19,160 nucleotides of DNA from a virus (IMGVR_UViG_648276647_000017:1-19160), one strand, 5' to 3'; shown: positions 3,217 to 8,223, numbered from the stretch's first letter. The notes: generated by a model not told the origin, from the letters alone. Numbers and translations are program-made.

Positions 3217-3403
3217 TGGAACCACCTGCCCCCACCTGGAACCACCTTTTCCTAACCTTTCCCTCAATCGACTTATATATATATGGGGTTTCTAGTAGAA
3301 AGGCGGTTCCAGTGGTTCCAGTAGTTCCGCCCCGCTTGCCACAAGGTCTGCAAGGTGGAACCACCTTCTCTTCTAGGTGGTTCCGCGTGGTTCCAGCGGT
3401 TCC
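3217..3403. repeat. Iteron array flanking an AT-rich element; candidate origin of replication
   Basis: Nine copies of the hexamer GGAACC/GGTTCC in both orientations (3218, 3238, 3306, 3314, degenerate 3323, 3357, 3379, 3389, 3398), mostly within extended TGGAACCACC-type units, flanking the run cgacTTATATATATATGG (3269-3286). The array overlaps the 3' end of the primase gene and lies upstream of Q. Confidence 0.5.
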
Positions 3404-5559
3404 CAAACCTTGCATTTTTTCCCCCCAATTCGCCTTTGGGCACGCTTATACCCGCAATTTTGCAAAACATTACTAATTCGCATTTCTTCGCGTTTTCCGA
3501 TGCGGTCAGGATTTAGCCCAATCGCATCACGCAAAACATCACTTGCGCGTAAAAATTCGCAATTTCGCGGAAGTTCATTAGTCATCAGGTCGGGCGTGTC
3601 GAGCCATTTCTCTACCGTTTCAAGCCAAGCATCCTTGATGGTGTACTGTTCATGGACACTCGCTGCCAGTTGTTCAGCCTCACGGAACTGGATACCCCCC
3701 AGACGCTGAAACACCTCACGAGCCTCAGCCCAAAGTAAAAGAAGATCTCTTTTTATCGCTTTCACGTCGACTTTCGACACTTCCACGGGGAGCCAGCGAC
3801 GGTTACCAGTCTTGTCCGCAAGGAATTCGTCCTCATTAGTGGTACCAACGAACACCAGGCGACGAGGAAACTGGGTGGCGAACTCCCGGTATTTCGGGAT
3901 CCAGTTTTCGTGAGTACGCGTCACAAACGCTTTGATTGACTCCAGCTCTTTGGTATTAAGTCCGCGCAGTTCACCAATCTCTGCCACCAGCCGACCACGC
4001 ATTTTTCGAGCGAGATCATCGTCTTTTTCGGCAAAAGAGATTTCAGTAAAAAACGCAGGATCAGGGCTCAGTGCCTCCACTCCGGAAGACTTACCGCAGC
4101 CCTGCGGACCAACGAGGATCGGCACCATATCCGCTTTGATGCCTGGCTCCAGTACTCGCCCCGCCAACGCGGTCCACATGTACATAGACACCGCACGGGT
4201 ATAAGGCGTGTCGGCGGTACCGAAGTGCGTATGGTAGAAACATTCGATGCGCGGCACGCCATCCCACTCCAGTCCGTTCAGCCAGGTGATCGCTGAATCG
4301 AATGGTTGTTCATCGGCTGCAAGTAACACCACATCGCGAATAAGTTCACGACCAACAGGTTTAAATCCCCGCTTTTCCATCGTGATGCGCAGGCGCGCAT
4401 AATCCGCATCGGTGAAGGCCTGCCACTGGCCGGAGCCTGCCTGGGCGAACATGATTTCGTCACGGAACTGGTCAAAGCGAATATCGATGTCCACGAAGTC
4501 AGGACGCACAACGGCTTTTGCCGCGTTGCTGATGGTGGCCTCGATGCGGCCCCATTTGTCGCGCTCGAACGCCGGCAGCGGTAACGGCTCGGCCACTTCG
4601 GTGCTGGTCAGGTCTTCGAAATCGTCGTTGCGGATCCCGATGGCATTAAGGAAATCGCCGTCGTCGCGGTGCGCGCAGCTGGCGTGCAGGCACTTAAAAT
4701 GCCCCTGCTCAAAGCCCGCGGTACCGCCCGGGAAGTAAACCGTGCTCGTCGGGTCGCCGCCGGTGCTGTGGCCGTCTTCGAACGGGCAACGGATATAGCG
4801 CTCGCCGTTCGCGCCGTCCAGCAGCGTCCAGCCATTGGCATCGAGATATTCCGCCGTATCATCCGTGGCGCCGGGCGTGAAGGTTGAACGGTCGCGCATC
4901 TTCGTGCTGCCCGCTTCGGTGGTGACCGACACAGGTAACTGTTCCGCCAGTCGCTGCCACAGCGTTTCAAGCTGCTCACCAGTAATAGCCGGAGGTTCAT
5001 CCGGCAAACCGCCGTCCCATTCGATACGCGCGCCGCTGCTGTGCGTACCGCAGGCAACAAACTGCTGCCCGTTCGCCAGCAGCTCGATAATCCCCATATC
5101 GCCCGCCAGACGGTGGATGCGCTTACGGAAATCGCCGTCAACGGCCAGCAGGTACAGGCATTTGTTACTGTTGGCGCGCCAGCGACGCGGCGGCAGCTCA
5201 CCAAGCAGCTGCACCAGCGTTTTGCGAATATCGGCCTGGATATCTTCGTCTTCGCTGTCGCAGTCCAGCGCCAGCCAGCCATGGCCTGTACGCACGCAGA
5301 TGCCATAATCCGGTTCATTCGACCAGCGGGCAAAATCATGCTCAGTAACAACATGACTGGTCCATTGAGCAATACCGGTGACCTGACGGTCCCGGTTATA
5401 GCGACTTGGCGTCTTACCCAGCGCTTTCAGTTTACTGTCAGGGGATATAGTCGCACCGGGGTTACATACAACTGGGAGAAGATGAGCAGTTCGCCCCAAT
5501 ACCAGGTCGAAATGAAACCACTCATCAGGCGTAGCTCCCCATGGTTTGCTATCAGACAT
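3373..5559 (-). CDS. Bifunctional primase-polymerase / primase-helicase (PrimPol N-terminal domain plus P4-alpha/D5-like P-loop NTPase C-terminal domain)
   Basis: 728-aa ORF; Walker A motif GPQGCGKSS in the C-terminal half, N-terminal region typical of archaeo-eukaryotic-type primase-polymerases of phages and plasmids; AAGG Shine-Dalgarno 7 nt before the ATG; first replication gene downstream of the cro-like gene. Confidence 0.85.
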   Translation of the reverse strand: MSDSKPWGATPDEWFHFDLVLGRTAHLLPVVCNPGATISPDSKLKALGKTPSRYNRDRQVTGIAQWTSHVVTEHDFARWSNEPDYGICVRTGHGWLALDCDSEDEDIQADIRKTLVQLLGELPPRRWRANSNKCLYLLAVDGDFRKRIHRLAGDMGIIELLANGQQFVACGTHSSGARIEWDGGLPDEPPAITGEQLETLWQRLAEQLPVSVTTEAGSTKMRDRSTFTPGATDDTAEYLDANGWTLLDGANGERYIRCPFEDGHSTGGDPTSTVYFPGGTAGFEQGHFKCLHASCAHRDDGDFLNAIGIRNDDFEDLTSTEVAEPLPLPAFERDKWGRIEATISNAAKAVVRPDFVDIDIRFDQFRDEIMFAQAGSGQWQAFTDADYARLRITMEKRGFKPVGRELIRDVVLLAADEQPFDSAITWLNGLEWDGVPRIECFYHTHFGTADTPYTRAVSMYMWTALAGRVLEPGIKADMVPILVGPQGCGKSSGVEALSPDPAFFTEISFAEKDDDLARKMRGRLVAEIGELRGLNTKELESIKAFVTRTHENWIPKYREFATQFPRRLVFVGTTNEDEFLADKTGNRRWLPVEVSKVDVKAIKRDLLLLWAEAREVFQRLGGIQFREAEQLAASVHEQYTIKDAWLETVEKWLDTPDLMTNELPRNCEFLRASDVLRDAIGLNPDRIGKREEMRISNVLQNCGYKRAQRRIGGKKCKVWEPLEPRGTT

Positions 5560-5734
5560 GGGTTAAGCCTTTTTGTTTGACTACATTTTTTTGCTCCAAA
5601 ATCTTTTCAAGTTGAAGAGCTCTTAGCTCTGGGATTTCCTCCCCCCATTGAGATACGGCTCCTTTGGAAACCTTCAATAGTCTCGCTAGTTTCGCTTTAC
5701 TTCCTGCAAGCTCAATTGCTTCTGCTTTTTTCAT
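5552..5734 (-). CDS. Cro-like HTH regulator (Cro/CI-type, YdaS-like)
   Basis: Small ORF divergent from the CI-type repressor; helix-turn-helix region LAGSKAKLARLLKVSKGAVSQW. The track begins at a GTG (5743); the ATG at 5734 (MKKAEAIELAG...) is my preferred start. The 3' end overlaps the primase start. Confidence 0.6.
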   Translation of the reverse strand: MKKAEAIELAGSKAKLARLLKVSKGAVSQWGEEIPELRALQLEKILEQKNVVKQKGLTHV

Positions 5735-5743
5735 ACCCGTCAC

Positions 5744-5847
5744 CCAGGAAATATATGGTTATATGAGGTTAAGAAAACTAAACCCACAAGTCAAGAAAGC
5801 GATACCCTGATTAAGTTAAGCTAACTAAACTATATGAGGGTAAAACC
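5744..5847. promoter_or_regulatory. Immunity-region operator/promoter block between the divergent cro-like and CI genes
   Basis: Two copies of a 16-bp near-palindromic motif, GTTAAGAAAACTAAAC (5768-5783) and GTTAAGCTAACTAAAC (5815-5830), 14/16 identical. On the minus strand a TTGACT -35 (5794..5789) with a 17-nt spacer to TAACCT (5771..5766) overlaps the first copy, consistent with a CI-repressed cro promoter. Confidence 0.5.
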
Positions 5848-6540
5848 ATGATTAATGATCGTATTCGCGAGGCTCGTCGCAATGTCCACCTAACGCAGGA
5901 TGCGCTTGCTAAACGTATTGGTCTAACTAAAGCCACGATTTCACAATGGGAATCCGGAAACACCACACCTAACGGGAAAAATCTTATAAATCTGGCCGAA
6001 GCATTGAACGTTTCTCCAGAGTGGCTACTTTCAGGCAAAACAAGCGATACCAAAGAAATACATTCTAATGCACAAGTTGAGGGGGGGTTTTCTGTATGGG
6101 ACTCATCAACGCCATTAGAGGATGATGAAGTGGAAATACCGTTCTATCAGGAAATTGAACTATCTGCCGGTAATGGTACTTATGTTGATATAGATCGAAT
6201 GGGATGTAAGTTAAGATTCGCCCGTTCAACGTTGCGCAAAGCAGGTGTTGACGTAAATTGTGCGGCTTGTGTCAGCATCCACGGCAACAGCATGGAACCG
6301 GTATTACCAGATGGCGCTGTCGTCGGCATAGATACATCAAAAACAGGTGTAAAAGATGGTCAAATGTACGCTATAGACCAAGACGGATTACTTCGTGTCA
6401 AACTATTGTACCGTCTCCCAAGCGGACTCCGGATACGCTCTTTCAATAGGGATGAATACGCAGACGAAGAGTATTTTAATCAAGAGGCTAATAAAATCAG
6501 GATTATAGGCCAAGTATTTTGGTACTCCGTTCTGCTCTGA
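5848..6540 (+). CDS. cI: CI-type prophage repressor (N-terminal HTH_XRE, C-terminal S24 LexA-like autopeptidase)
   Basis: 230-aa ORF; HTH (LTQDALAKRIGLTKATISQWESG), candidate Ala-Gly cleavage site in ELSAGNG, catalytic Ser in GNSMEP and Lys in LRVKLL; GAGGG Shine-Dalgarno 7 nt upstream; divergent from the cro-like gene. Confidence 0.9.
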   Translation: MINDRIREARRNVHLTQDALAKRIGLTKATISQWESGNTTPNGKNLINLAEALNVSPEWLLSGKTSDTKEIHSNAQVEGGFSVWDSSTPLEDDEVEIPFYQEIELSAGNGTYVDIDRMGCKLRFARSTLRKAGVDVNCAACVSIHGNSMEPVLPDGAVVGIDTSKTGVKDGQMYAIDQDGLLRVKLLYRLPSGLRIRSFNRDEYADEEYFNQEANKIRIIGQVFWYSVLL

Positions 6541-6564
6541 GCGTAAATTCACTCTATACCACAT

Positions 6565-6591
6565 GCCCGCTTCCTAAGCGGGCTTTTCTTT
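6565..6591 (+). terminator. Intrinsic terminator downstream of the CI gene
   Basis: GCCCGCTT-cct-AAGCGGGC (perfect 8-bp stem, 3-nt loop) followed by TTTTCTTT, 25 bp after the CI stop codon. Confidence 0.65.
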
Positions 6592-6629
6592 ACCTATCCG
6601 AAAAAGTTCACTTTTCTTAACTACAACAC

Positions 6630-6685
6630 TTGACTTTGTGAGTTTAGAGGTCTTAACTATATGCGTGAAGTTAAGATATCTATAC
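6630..6685 (+). promoter_or_regulatory. Candidate CI-controlled early promoter (pL-equivalent) with two further operator-like motif copies
   Basis: TTGACT at 6630-6635 with a weak -10 (TTAACT, 6653-6658) at 17-nt spacing; operator-like copies GTTTAGAGGTCTTAAC (6642-6657) and GTTAAGATATCTATAC (6670-6685) share the GTTAAG-N4-CT(A/T)AAC pattern of the cI/cro intergenic sites. Confidence 0.3.
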
Positions 6686-6852
6686 ACAGATATTTAAACT
6701 ACAAGTCGAACGGCGCGACTCTAAACCATGCGTCGGGACCGTGGCGGGACAGGATGTCGGCAATACGGGTCAGTAAGTTCCCTTTGGGGTGCGGCGAAGC
6801 ACTGGGTCGAAGCCGCCGAACCACCAAAGTGAACTGAATGAGGAATCACAAG

Positions 6853-7047
6853 ATGCCTAAATATAAACTGGTTAATGACCTGGCTATCGGCGACAAAATT
6901 GAATTCAGTGGAAAACGGATAATGGAGGTTACCCAAAAAACTGACCGCGACCAGCATAACGTTAGCCTGACTCTAGTTAACAAACATACAGGTTCTGCGA
7001 CTAATACTTGTTTTAACCGAATGGATACCGTCGTCCTTCCCCCATAA
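6853..7047 (+). CDS. Hypothetical small protein (64 aa), stand-alone unit between the immunity region and the early operon
   Basis: ATG at 6853 (MPKYKLVNDLAIGDKIEF...) with a GAGGAA Shine-Dalgarno about 6 nt upstream; the track ORF starts earlier at 6838. Bracketed by the CI terminator upstream and a hairpin plus T-tract downstream. No family recognised. Confidence 0.45.
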   Translation: MPKYKLVNDLAIGDKIEFSGKRIMEVTQKTDRDQHNVSLTLVNKHTGSATNTCFNRMDTVVLPP

Positions 7048-7089
7048 CAATCCTCTGAATCCTCCATGTAATTGCTGTGTGTAGTCTTT

Positions 7090-7117
7090 GCCCGCCTCAA
7101 GTGACGGGCTTTTTTAT
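7090..7117 (+). terminator. Candidate intrinsic terminator after the small ORF
   Basis: GCCCGCC-tcaagt-GACGGGC (7-bp stem with one mismatch) followed by TTTTTTAT. Confidence 0.45.
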
Positions 7118-7141
7118 GTCTGAAAGCGCACTCGCAACAGC

Positions 7142-7324
7142 GTGCTCCCCGATATGAAAAAAGGAATACAACCGATGAAACCTGAACACATCCATCGACT
7201 GACGGGGCGCGATGTTCTCCGTTATCGCCGTAAAAACTTCGATTTGATGACCGGTCTGGCCGTTGCCACTGCGCTCGGTCTGATCATCACTTTCATTCTC
7301 CTTGTAGCGAGGCCCACAGTATGA
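7142..7324 (+). CDS. Hypothetical small tail-anchored membrane protein
   Basis: ORF ending in a single hydrophobic helix (LMTGLAVATALGLIITFILLV); the track start at 7142 is a GTG, alternative ATGs at 7154 and 7175, the latter with an AAGGAA Shine-Dalgarno (49-aa product); stop overlaps the start of the next gene (7321). Confidence 0.4.
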   Translation: MLPDMKKGIQPMKPEHIHRLTGRDVLRYRRKNFDLMTGLAVATALGLIITFILLVARPTV

Positions 7325-8223
7325 GTTTAGAAACCAGTCTAGAACTTAATAATCAACTTCTGGCACAACATAATGCGCTGCTTGAACGTCTTATCCGCAC
7401 AATGGCATCAGGCATTGTTATGCATCCTGACACGATTTCACGAGTGCAGGAATGTCGGGATACAGCAACTGAAACTGAAAATATGTCAGCGGCAATGACA
7501 CTGGATGATCTGGAGTTCAGCGACGTTATCGCACTGGCTGGTTTCTACCCGGTAGCCACCCCTATCACAGAAGACATGCTGCAACGTGCTGTTGCCTACC
7601 GTGATGCTGAAGGCGATAAACGAGTAGTTCAGATTGATGCTCTCGACAGCGCATTGCAGGGCGTCAAACGAGCCAGGGCGCTGCTTAAACCTGCTCTCCT
7701 GGACCTGTCCCGTAACATCCTTAAGTTCTGGGACGACCTGCCAACCATCGGCGAGCGACGTGCTTTTGCCGAGCAGCTACTTGATGCACCTGCGGATGGG
7801 CGTGATGAAGTTAAGCCGAAAAAGGCCAGTAACAAGGATGGAGAACGCACGGGGCCGTTTTACGTCAAAAATGTATCCGGCACAGCAGCCAGTGAACTCC
7901 ACACCTTACGCAAGTTGAACGAGATGCTGAAAAAAGGCCATATCGAGATCAACCGTGTTGAGTACCTTCAGCTGCAGGAAGAATTTGCACGCAGAGACGC
8001 AGCAAATTCCAGCCAGAATAATGACGCCAAAGATGACCATACAATTGATTTCGCGGCACTACGCAAACAAGCTGAAGGGTTGATCCTCCAGTTAGCAAAA
8101 GGGGGTTACCGGGCAGAAGCTATTGCAATTCTGGAAAAACAGGGAGCCAGGAAACTTGGTGAAGTAACGGATGAAAATCTCGCTGAAGTAATCACCCTGG
8201 CTGAAAAAGCACTGGAGGGTTAA
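7321..8223 (+). CDS. Hypothetical phage protein (300 aa), first large gene of the plus-strand early operon
   Basis: Long ORF, translationally coupled to the neighbours on both sides (4-bp overlap upstream, 2-bp gap downstream); acidic and helical, no recognisable catalytic motif. Confidence 0.55.

Follow-up and report, generated by a model that had tools for sequence, protein, structure and literature searches.

A clustered palindromic motif marks the likely operators of a P22-type immunity switch in an Escherichia coli prophage

Results

A clustered 18-bp palindrome at two early promoters

The viral sequence IMGVR_UViG_648276647_000017:1-19160 (hereafter the window, the whole 19,160-nt stretch that was analyzed) carries divergent genes for a CI-type repressor and a Cro-like protein, together with two clusters of a short palindromic motif. 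The genes and sites follow the order cro ← right operator (OR) → cI – terminator – leftward promoter (PL)/left operator (OL) → early genes, the same order as in lambda and P22. From comparative sequence analysis we consider it highly probable that an E. coli prophage uses the motif copies as operators in a P22-type immunity switch.

The first-pass annotation of the window had reported four copies of GTTAAG-N4-CT(A/T)AAC, two between cI and cro (5768, 5815) and two beside a second promoter (6642, 6670). We scanned the whole window for GTTAAGNNNNCTWAAC (GTTAAG-N4-CTWAAC) and read the region 4800-7400 directly. All four copies lie at the positions reported, though only three match the formula exactly: 5768-5783 and 5815-5830 on the plus strand, and 6642-6657, which fits the formula on the minus strand and reads GTTTAGAGGTCTTAAC on the plus strand. 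The copy at 6670-6685 (GTTAAGATATCTATAC) is one base off and is the sole additional place at one mismatch or fewer. The motif is therefore not common in the prophage sequence at hand, as no other match with up to one mismatch occurs in the 19 kb. No match was expected, and none was found, in 200 shuffles that preserved dinucleotide composition. When two mismatches were allowed, a fifth site appeared at 6606-6621 (GTTCACTTTTCTTAAC), adjoining the same TTGACT promoter as the second cluster, and the remaining matches, at 731 and 14991, correspond to the chance level of about two.

To score sites we used a symmetric 18-bp matrix built from relatives' sites only, with the window excluded. The four motif copies scored between 21.4 and 24.3 bits, followed by the fifth site at 16.8 bits and a sixth, starting at 5789, at 9.6 bits (Table 1); the next best position in the window reached 7.8 bits. 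Across 50 kb of a sister prophage that is 96.5% identical, with its host flank, nothing exceeded 15.2 bits apart from the top five sites. The matrix frequencies, drawn from 30 sites, are highest at position 2 (G, 0.96), T3 (0.93), T4 (0.80), A6 (0.96), and G7 (0.93), and the center is variable. These data suggest that the operator is an 18-bp element, A-GTTAAG-N4-CTTAAC-T, whose two 6-bp half-sites are separated by one helical turn, the spacing expected when helix-turn-helix (HTH) domains bind as a dimer. In aligned regulatory DNA the N4 center and the flanks diverge while the half-sites stay constant: half-site columns have an identity of 0.94 across nine OR loci and 0.87 across five OL loci, compared to 0.61 and 0.62 for the other non-coding columns. 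Site centers are spaced by 22 and 25 bp in OR and by 36 and 28 bp in OL. The overall layout is probably three sites plus three sites, with the intermediate fifth site (6606) and the weak sixth (5790) completing OL and OR, respectively. Each region would then hold two strong sites and one weaker one, of 16.8 bits in OL and of 8.8-9.6 bits in OR, where it overlaps the −35 box.

The sites overlap the predicted promoters of both divergent operons

In the cro–cI interval, near-palindromic repeats lie between the two divergent genes and overlap their predicted promoters. The rightward promoter (PR) is predicted on the minus strand, where a TTGACT box is followed by a 17-bp spacer and TAACCT. The strong operator begins 4 nt past the −35, occupies the space between the two boxes, and overlaps the −10. 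The probable weak middle site has a per-position chance of 0.0002 in shuffled regulatory DNA, amounting to 0.003 expected occurrences in the 31-bp gap between the strong OR sites, and the third-best site stands at the matching offset (−60/−61) in all five enterobacterial relatives. The cI-proximal operator ends 17 nt upstream of the cI start codon. The best −10 candidate for the promoter of repressor maintenance (PRM), whose position is inferred, lies within this operator and would give cI an 18-nt leader.

Enterobacterial members of the group, the window included, carry an 18-nt insertion with a GAGG ribosome-binding site before cI. In Shewanella relatives (L009, L011-L014, and L018; ~2484-2503) and in the P22-type phage 25 (L085, 1283-1303), the cI-proximal operator stops 1 nt before the repressor ATG, which would make the cI mRNA leaderless or nearly so. 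Separately, the predicted cro leader contains an AT-rich near-palindrome, AATATATGGTTATATG (5750-5765), which bears no relation to the operator motif and is not kept in relatives.

The second cluster lies downstream of cI, on an early promoter that reads in the same direction, and comprises the sites starting at 6605, 6641, and 6669. The TTGACT box that the first-pass annotation had placed next to this cluster is indeed present, at 6630-6635, and its columns have an identity of 0.93 among relatives. OL site a lies 7 nt upstream of this box; its CTTAAC half is invariant in five relatives, and a site at its position is also found in Shewanella (L011/L018) and in P22 (OL2). OL site b begins 5 nt past the −35, within the PL spacer, and overlaps the putative −10 (TTAACT/TAACTA, 6653-6659), a geometry that matches the PR operator and P22 OL1. 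PR and PL thus have a common layout, TTGACT-4/5 nt-[18-bp site]. At the −10 position relatives carry TAACTT (Erwinia and Photorhabdus), TAATAT (Arsenophonus, L006), or TAACCT (Shewanella). OL site c falls within the predicted PL transcript, at about +5 to +20, and has a counterpart in the matching place in L004, L005, L007, and L008. An intrinsic terminator separates the cI transcript from PL. Because the second cluster sits on a TTGACT promoter, past the cI terminator and about 40 nt before an RNA element resembling putL, we assign it to PL/OL on sequence grounds.

We also considered GATATT (6689-6694), which aligns with the −10 of a heteroimmune relative and of HK022, as the main PL −10. This candidate was rejected: it has no −35, and the same-immunity Erwinia locus L005 has no −10-like hexamer there while its TTGAC promoter is conserved.

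Table 1. Coordinates and properties of the features discussed in the text. Positions are those of the window unless a locus is named; site sequences are written as flank-half-site-center-half-site-flank.
Feature	Position	Strand	Description
cro-like gene, 60 amino acids	5552..5734	-	Pfam P22_Cro, E 2e-16; nearest solved chain P22 Cro 1RZS, E 2e-4
Immunity cassette (cro, OR, cI, terminator, OL/PL)	5575..6693		Block exchange among related E. coli prophages
Putative PR −10 (TAACCT)	5766..5771	-	17 bp beyond TTGACT; TAAC(C/A)T kept in 9/9 aligned loci
PR operator (strong)	5767..5784		G-GTTAAG-AAAA-CTAAAC-C; exact match; 22.5 bits; half-sites invariant in 9 aligned loci
Putative PR −35 (TTGACT)	5789..5794	-	Column identity 0.98 over 9 loci
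Probable weak middle OR site	5789..5806		A-GTCAAG-AAAG-CGATAC-C; 3 mismatches; 8.8-9.6 bits
cI-proximal OR operator (strong)	5814..5831		A-GTTAAG-CTAA-CTAAAC-T; exact match; 24.3 bits; half-sites invariant
Putative PRM −10 (TAAGCT)	5817..5822	+	Best candidate; inside cI-proximal operator
cI repressor gene, 230 amino acids	5848..6540	+	HTH_3 N-terminal domain and S24 autopeptidase C-terminal domain
Intrinsic terminator after cI	6565..6590	+	8-pair stem (6565-6583), then T run; hairpin at equivalent place in 5 relatives
OL site a (intermediate)	6605..6622		A-GTTCAC-TTTT-CTTAAC-T; 2 mismatches; 16.8 bits
Putative PL −35 (TTGACT)	6630..6635	+	CTTGAC invariant in 5 enterobacterial relatives; also in Shewanella L011/L018 and P22
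OL site b (strong)	6641..6658		A-GTTTAG-AGGT-CTTAAC-T; exact match on minus strand; 21.4 bits
OL site c (strong)	6669..6686		A-GTTAAG-ATAT-CTATAC-A; 1 mismatch; 23.0 bits
putL-like antiterminator RNA	6704/6705..6775	+	82% identity over 72 nt to HK022, HK75, and O276 putL
Heteroimmune palindrome ATACAA-N6-TTGTAT	L001: 1789-1806, 1834-1851, 2655-2672		L002 alike

The motif covaries with the repressor recognition helix

We compared 81 cI loci, the window and 80 homologous loci from species genomes whose repressors, a graded series at 42-84% identity, were recovered by a protein search, and counted a locus as motif-bearing when two copies with no more than two mismatches stood upstream of cI at fixed offsets. 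All 12 loci in which helix 3 of CI reads (T/S)KAT(I/V)S(Q/L)WE carry the motif twice upstream of cI, at −81/−34 in enterobacteria and at −76/−17 in Shewanella, and none of the remaining 69 loci does. Overall identity does not explain this split, as the motif-free loci L010, L015-L017, and L019 (53-56%) are as near to the window as the motif-bearing Shewanella loci. The motif also occurs at the downstream promoter in 9 of the 12 loci. In all six enterobacterial loci this second cluster lies 66-134 nt past the cI stop codon, and in three Shewanella loci it lies 0.7-2 kb downstream, past inserted genes, in the order site-7 nt-CTTGAC-5/6 nt-site. The divergent Cro follows the same pattern: its recognition helix starts with (S/T)K (e.g. 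VSKGAVSQW) in at least 10 of the 12 motif loci, and in none of the 24 loci examined that lack the motif and have a Cro-like divergent gene. The corresponding helix of P22 Cro is SDAAVSQW.

Other members of the CI family have 6-N4-6 palindromes of their own at equivalent places, with half-sites such as GGTAAG, GATAAG, TGTAAG, TATTAG, and TGTTAC, among others. In the 130 bp upstream of cI in L010, L015-L029, L038, and L040, for example, we found GGTAAG-N4-CTTACC, GATAAG-N4-CTTATT, TATTAG-N4-CTAATA, and TGTTAC-N4-GTAACA. The genes inserted between cI and PL/OL in Shewanella are on the minus strand (L009 3199-5076, L011 3182-4461, L018 3279-3854; 0.7-2 kb); by analogy with their position, that of rexAB in lambda, they may be accessory (moron) genes expressed in the lysogen.

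Putative operators, cI, and cro are exchanged as one cassette

The region 5500-6900 is complete in 18 of 5,426 complete E. coli genomes, and its flanks without the rest occur in another 85. Two of these 85, L001 and L002, are 91% identical to the window up to 5574 and 98% identical from 6694/6701, with no similarity in between, and the replaced block ends a few bases before the stem of the put element. The swapped block holds cI, cro, and both motif clusters, so both clusters travel with the repressor, as operators should; the putative operators, cI, and cro are inherited together. The foreign block of L001 and L002 has no GTTAAG-type site. Instead it contains the palindrome ATACAA-N6-TTGTAT, twice between its own cro and cI and once in the PL spacer.

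The heteroimmune cassette of L001, from E. coli 21KM1392, encodes a 207-amino-acid LexA-family repressor and a 70-amino-acid HTH protein on the same prophage backbone, and L002 is alike. Its PL palindrome occupies the spacer of TTTACA-17-TATCTT, and, as in HK022, 9 nt separate the end of the −10 from the put stem.

CI, Cro, and the gene neighborhood

CI combines an HTH_3 domain (Pfam, E 2.4e-18, residues 6-60) with a Peptidase_S24 domain (E 2.8e-17) and matches the repressors of PHROG 4 (2e-58). Its N-terminal domain aligns without gaps over residues 2-69 to the P22 c2 structures 1ADR, 2R1J, and 3JXB (E 5e-14). Among 25 homologues Gly108, Ser148, and Lys185 are invariant and Ala107 is nearly so; CI thus has the makings of a LexA-like (S24) repressor, namely an N-terminal HTH, an S24 domain with a Ser/Lys dyad, and an Ala-Gly cleavage site in the linker. 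Matches to CI in the phage collection were all below 50% identity, and no phage record contained this cI or its operators at the DNA level.

The cro-like gene, annotated as the same open reading frame (ORF) by RefSeq in L003, is the first of the minus-strand early (PR) operon and overlaps the start of a gene for a VapE-type primase/helicase (3373-5559), and the Q antiterminator lies further on. Beyond 6838 the plus strand carries small ORFs, a DUF2800 PD-(D/E)XK exonuclease gene, and a gene for an Enc34/Gp2.5-type single-strand-binding protein. The 96.5%-identical sister prophage, in E. coli 22KM0354, adjoins yfhL, and its further genes are those for DNA polymerase, helicase, integrase, lysis functions, and myovirus-like structural proteins.

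A putL-like RNA follows PL

In HK022 and its relatives putL lies directly downstream of PL. The window has a homologous element that begins about 40 nt past the predicted PL start, and since this putL homologue follows the TTGACT promoter at OL, we take that promoter to be the equivalent of PL. The element is annotated as putL in two of the HK022, HK75, and O276 records, and another alignment gave 90% identity over 42 nt. Of 20 pairs predicted for the put fold, two show compensatory changes among six sequences, both of them in stem II; in stem I the alternatives GUCG/CGAC and GACG/CGUC appear compensatory by eye. The element thus resembles putL in sequence and forms two predicted stem-loops with covariation. 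Folding of 6695-6840 on its own gave no significant stability (z = −0.5), and it is homology and covariation that support the put assignment. No put family exists in Rfam, and no element in the window reached its gathering score. No second, putR-like copy was found in the window, and a literature search on putL and this prophage returned nothing. In phiEt88 and UPF_BP1 the put element likewise lies about 150 bp downstream of the repressor gene.

The prophage that carries this RNA is otherwise unlike HK022, having a VapE primase/helicase, a family-A DNA polymerase, and a myovirus-like tail, and the window contains no N-like gene. Between put and the first PL ORF, relatives have a 13-14-bp insertion in the GC-rich leader, tctaattaataca (L001 2775-2790; L003 2796-2810), which the window (~6797) lacks.

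Further along the PL operon, after a 69-amino-acid ORF (6838-7047), the first terminator coincides with an element resembling RprA (6997-7119, plus strand; core 7070-7115; Rfam RF00034, 50.3 bits, which is under the gathering score of 70). Its 3′ part, AATTGCTGTGTGTAGTCTTTGCCCG...CGGGCTTTTTT, matches the 3′ end and terminator of the chromosomal rprA gene at 85% identity over 46 nt; that gene is present in essentially all E. coli, and the prophage copy in 179 of the 5,426 genomes. Carried by the prophage, the element might mimic or sponge the RprA 3′ seed, or it might be a small RNA from a 3′ untranslated region.

Discussion

A model for the switch

From the pattern of the motif, its statistics, its conservation, and its covariation with the repressor, we infer binding of the sites, use of the promoters, the points at which transcription starts, and induction of the prophage. 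In a lysogen, CI dimers on 5767-5784 would block PR and thereby keep cro, the primase/helicase gene, and Q silent, and CI dimers on 6641-6658, inside PL and aided by 6605-6622 and 6669-6686, would block the plus-strand replication and recombination operon. Occupancy of 5814-5831, over the likely cI promoter, would allow CI to regulate itself negatively and Cro to shut off cI, and the weak middle site at 5789-5806, over the PR −35, would complete the 3+3 layout. Upon DNA damage, RecA-stimulated self-cleavage of CI at Ala107-Gly108 by Ser148/Lys185 would free both promoters. Cro, with the shared recognition helix (S/T)K-x-A-(V/I)-SQW, would then bind the same sites; comparison of the helices makes it very likely that Cro uses the same sites as CI. 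Transcripts from PL would fold into the put-like RNA and permit read-through of the terminator at 7080-7117.

The first-pass annotation had proposed that a CI-type repressor controls both divergent early operons, in an arrangement mirroring OR and OL of lambda. The cassette swap and the covariation of the CI helix speak for control of both operons by CI. The likeness to lambda holds in the gene order, and the identity of PL, the swap, and the covariation agree with it; the closest model, however, is P22 immC, and each region probably has three sites instead of two.

Alternative explanations

The sites might be bound by Cro alone, or by another phage or host regulator, with CI acting via different sequences. 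The motif tracks Cro no less closely than it tracks CI, so comparison by itself does not single out CI as the protein that uses the sites. We nevertheless regard this alternative as very improbable. The CI helix covaries perfectly with the motif (12/12 versus 0/69), no other repeated palindrome is common to the OR and OL regions, and CI is homologous to P22 c2, for which operators of this 18-bp TTAAG-N4-CTTAA design are known (PMC5175364). Slightly less probable still is the proposal that the repeats bind no protein, being either conserved pieces of the promoters or remnants of a PR/PL duplication. PR and PL can indeed be aligned over TTGACT and the next site, whose CTTAAC half runs into the putative −10 of either promoter. 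Yet both half-sites persist, at 10-bp spacing, in three sites that fall beyond the PR and PL core promoters (5814, 6605, and 6669), and the N4 center and flanks diverge while the half-sites hold. Moreover, the motif changes along with the repressor helix while the TTGAC box stays, and heteroimmune cassettes carry a different palindrome at the same spacer position.

AT-rich regulatory regions raise the local odds of words containing TTAA, and the clusters could in principle be a chance gathering of an AT-rich word in AT-rich intergenic DNA. This is effectively refuted, as none of the 200 dinucleotide-preserving shuffles reached even three matches, the per-position probability is 0.0002 even for the weakest candidate when regulatory DNA is shuffled, and the positions are conserved from E. 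coli to Shewanella. On the question of which protein binds, in all lambdoid switches that to our knowledge have been studied (lambda, 434, and P22) CI and Cro share operators, and we count this against binding by Cro alone.

Several observations weigh against our assignment of the sites as CI operators on PR and PL. A simple sigma-70 scan called neither PR nor PL, and their −10 boxes are weak, so the promoter assignments rest on conservation; that of PRM is the least secure. The left half of the middle OR site is the PR −35 box, so the promoter itself contributes to the score, and for this reason we grade the site as probable, not certain. Three Shewanella loci have the upstream motif and no second cluster within 2.5 kb. 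The 12 motif loci are interrelated, such that the 12-versus-0 split overstates the number of independent events, and by sequence CI and Cro are not distinguishable as the binder. Lastly, a literature search for the operator word returned unrelated papers only, and none on this operator.

Significance of the operator specificity

This is most likely an ordinary lambdoid, P22-like switch with a DNA specificity that is one variant in a large and well-understood family. The half-site AGTTAAG and the helix TKATISQWES define the immunity specificity of an uncharacterised prophage group whose relatives are found in Trabulsiella, Erwinia, Arsenophonus, Photorhabdus, and Shewanella. Annotators can use this pair to predict homoimmune prophages, and the repressor and operators are ready-made parts. 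The pair adds one data point to the rules of protein-DNA recognition in the P22 c2 family and leaves the understanding of lysis-lysogeny switches unchanged. The palindromes of sister loci, paired with different recognition helices, could serve directly as data for deriving a recognition code of P22-type repressors.

A more specific proposal, which we offer tentatively and think rather doubtful, joins two elements: that a single change at the start of the recognition helix retargeted operator position 2 from T to G, and that OL site c serves as a roadblock gating formation of the antiterminator. The change would be to Lys, from Asn32 in CI and from Asp in Cro, acquired in parallel by both proteins within the P22 repressor family, and OL site c, which lies in the transcribed leader between PL and the put RNA, might act as the roadblock. 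We know of no such leader-operator roadblock described for P22, lambda, or HK022. If true, this would amount to a natural, readable specificity code for HTH_3 phage repressors, for which the sister 6-N4-6 loci supply the rest.

Comparison with known immunity systems

The system most similar to the one described here is that of P22. The P22 repressor recognizes six symmetric 18-bp sites, contacting positions 2-7 and 12-17 and leaving the central four uncontacted (PMC4267663), and the P22 operator consensus is ATTTAAGATATCTTAAAT, with TTAAG half-sites in which Val33 sits among the TTAA methyl groups (PMC5175364). The operators in the window have the same geometry, being 18 bp long with TTAAG half-sites and a 4-bp center. 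The CI N-terminal domain aligns without gaps to c2 residues 6-73, Cro aligns to P22 Cro, and Gln37 and the minor-groove Asn46 of c2 are kept, the latter as Asn42. We read the P22-type OR and OL in phage 25, whose c2 N-terminal domain is identical. In both systems the OR centers are ~22-25 bp apart, and PL has the form CTTGAC(C/T)-4/5 nt-operator, and another site precedes the −35 by 6-7 nt; CTTGACC-ATTT-AATTAAGAAGTCTTAAAT of the P22 type aligns with CTTGACT-TTGTG-AGTTTAGAGGTCTTAACT of the window.

The two differ in specificity. At operator position 2 a G (0.96 in 27-30 sites) replaces the T of the P22 consensus ATTTAAG, and the recognition helix is TKATISQWES here and SNVAISQWER in P22, with Asn32 replaced by Lys28, Val33 by Ala29, Ala34 by Thr30, and Arg40 by Ser36. 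With this position and this helix the window does not share the specificity, and hence the homoimmunity, of P22. A contact between the lysine and the guanine at position 2 is a reasonable conjecture and no more. One P22 half-site (OR3, AGTTAAG) equals the consensus here, and P22 cross-binding may still occur as judged by this match. In arrangement, the third OL site follows the promoter (+5 to +20) here and precedes it in P22, the PR operator is placed otherwise than P22 OR1 and OR2, and the window cI is preceded by an 18-nt leader that includes a ribosome-binding site, in contrast to P22, where the operator abuts the ATG.

With lambda the window shares divergent PR and PRM, probably three sites between cro and cI, and a second cluster of probably three sites at a PL that lies downstream of cI on the same strand, as well as a repressor with an S24 autocleavage domain and an immunity region that is an exchangeable cassette. 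Unlike in lambda, the repressor is of the HTH_3 P22/434 type and has no lambda-type N-terminal arm, and the lambda operators are 17 bp long and unrelated in sequence. OL and OR are ~0.85 kb apart here compared to 2.4 kb in lambda, and PL carries a put RNA in place of N and nut.

That RNA links the window to HK022, where, as here, a repressor-controlled leftward promoter is followed at once by such an element; the window's version, 70 nt long and 82-90% identical to putL, has a two-stem structure with compensatory changes. The immunity modules are nevertheless unrelated, and the put stem lies ~40 nt past the predicted start in the window, with an operator in between, unlike in HK022 and the heteroimmune L001, where the −10 ends those 9 nt before the stem. 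Phage 434 shares the HTH_3 fold family (1PER, E 2.5e-7) and a palindromic operator with an uncontacted 4-bp center, but its operators are 14 bp long and of the ACAA type, and the sequence similarity to its repressor is far weaker than that to P22 c2.

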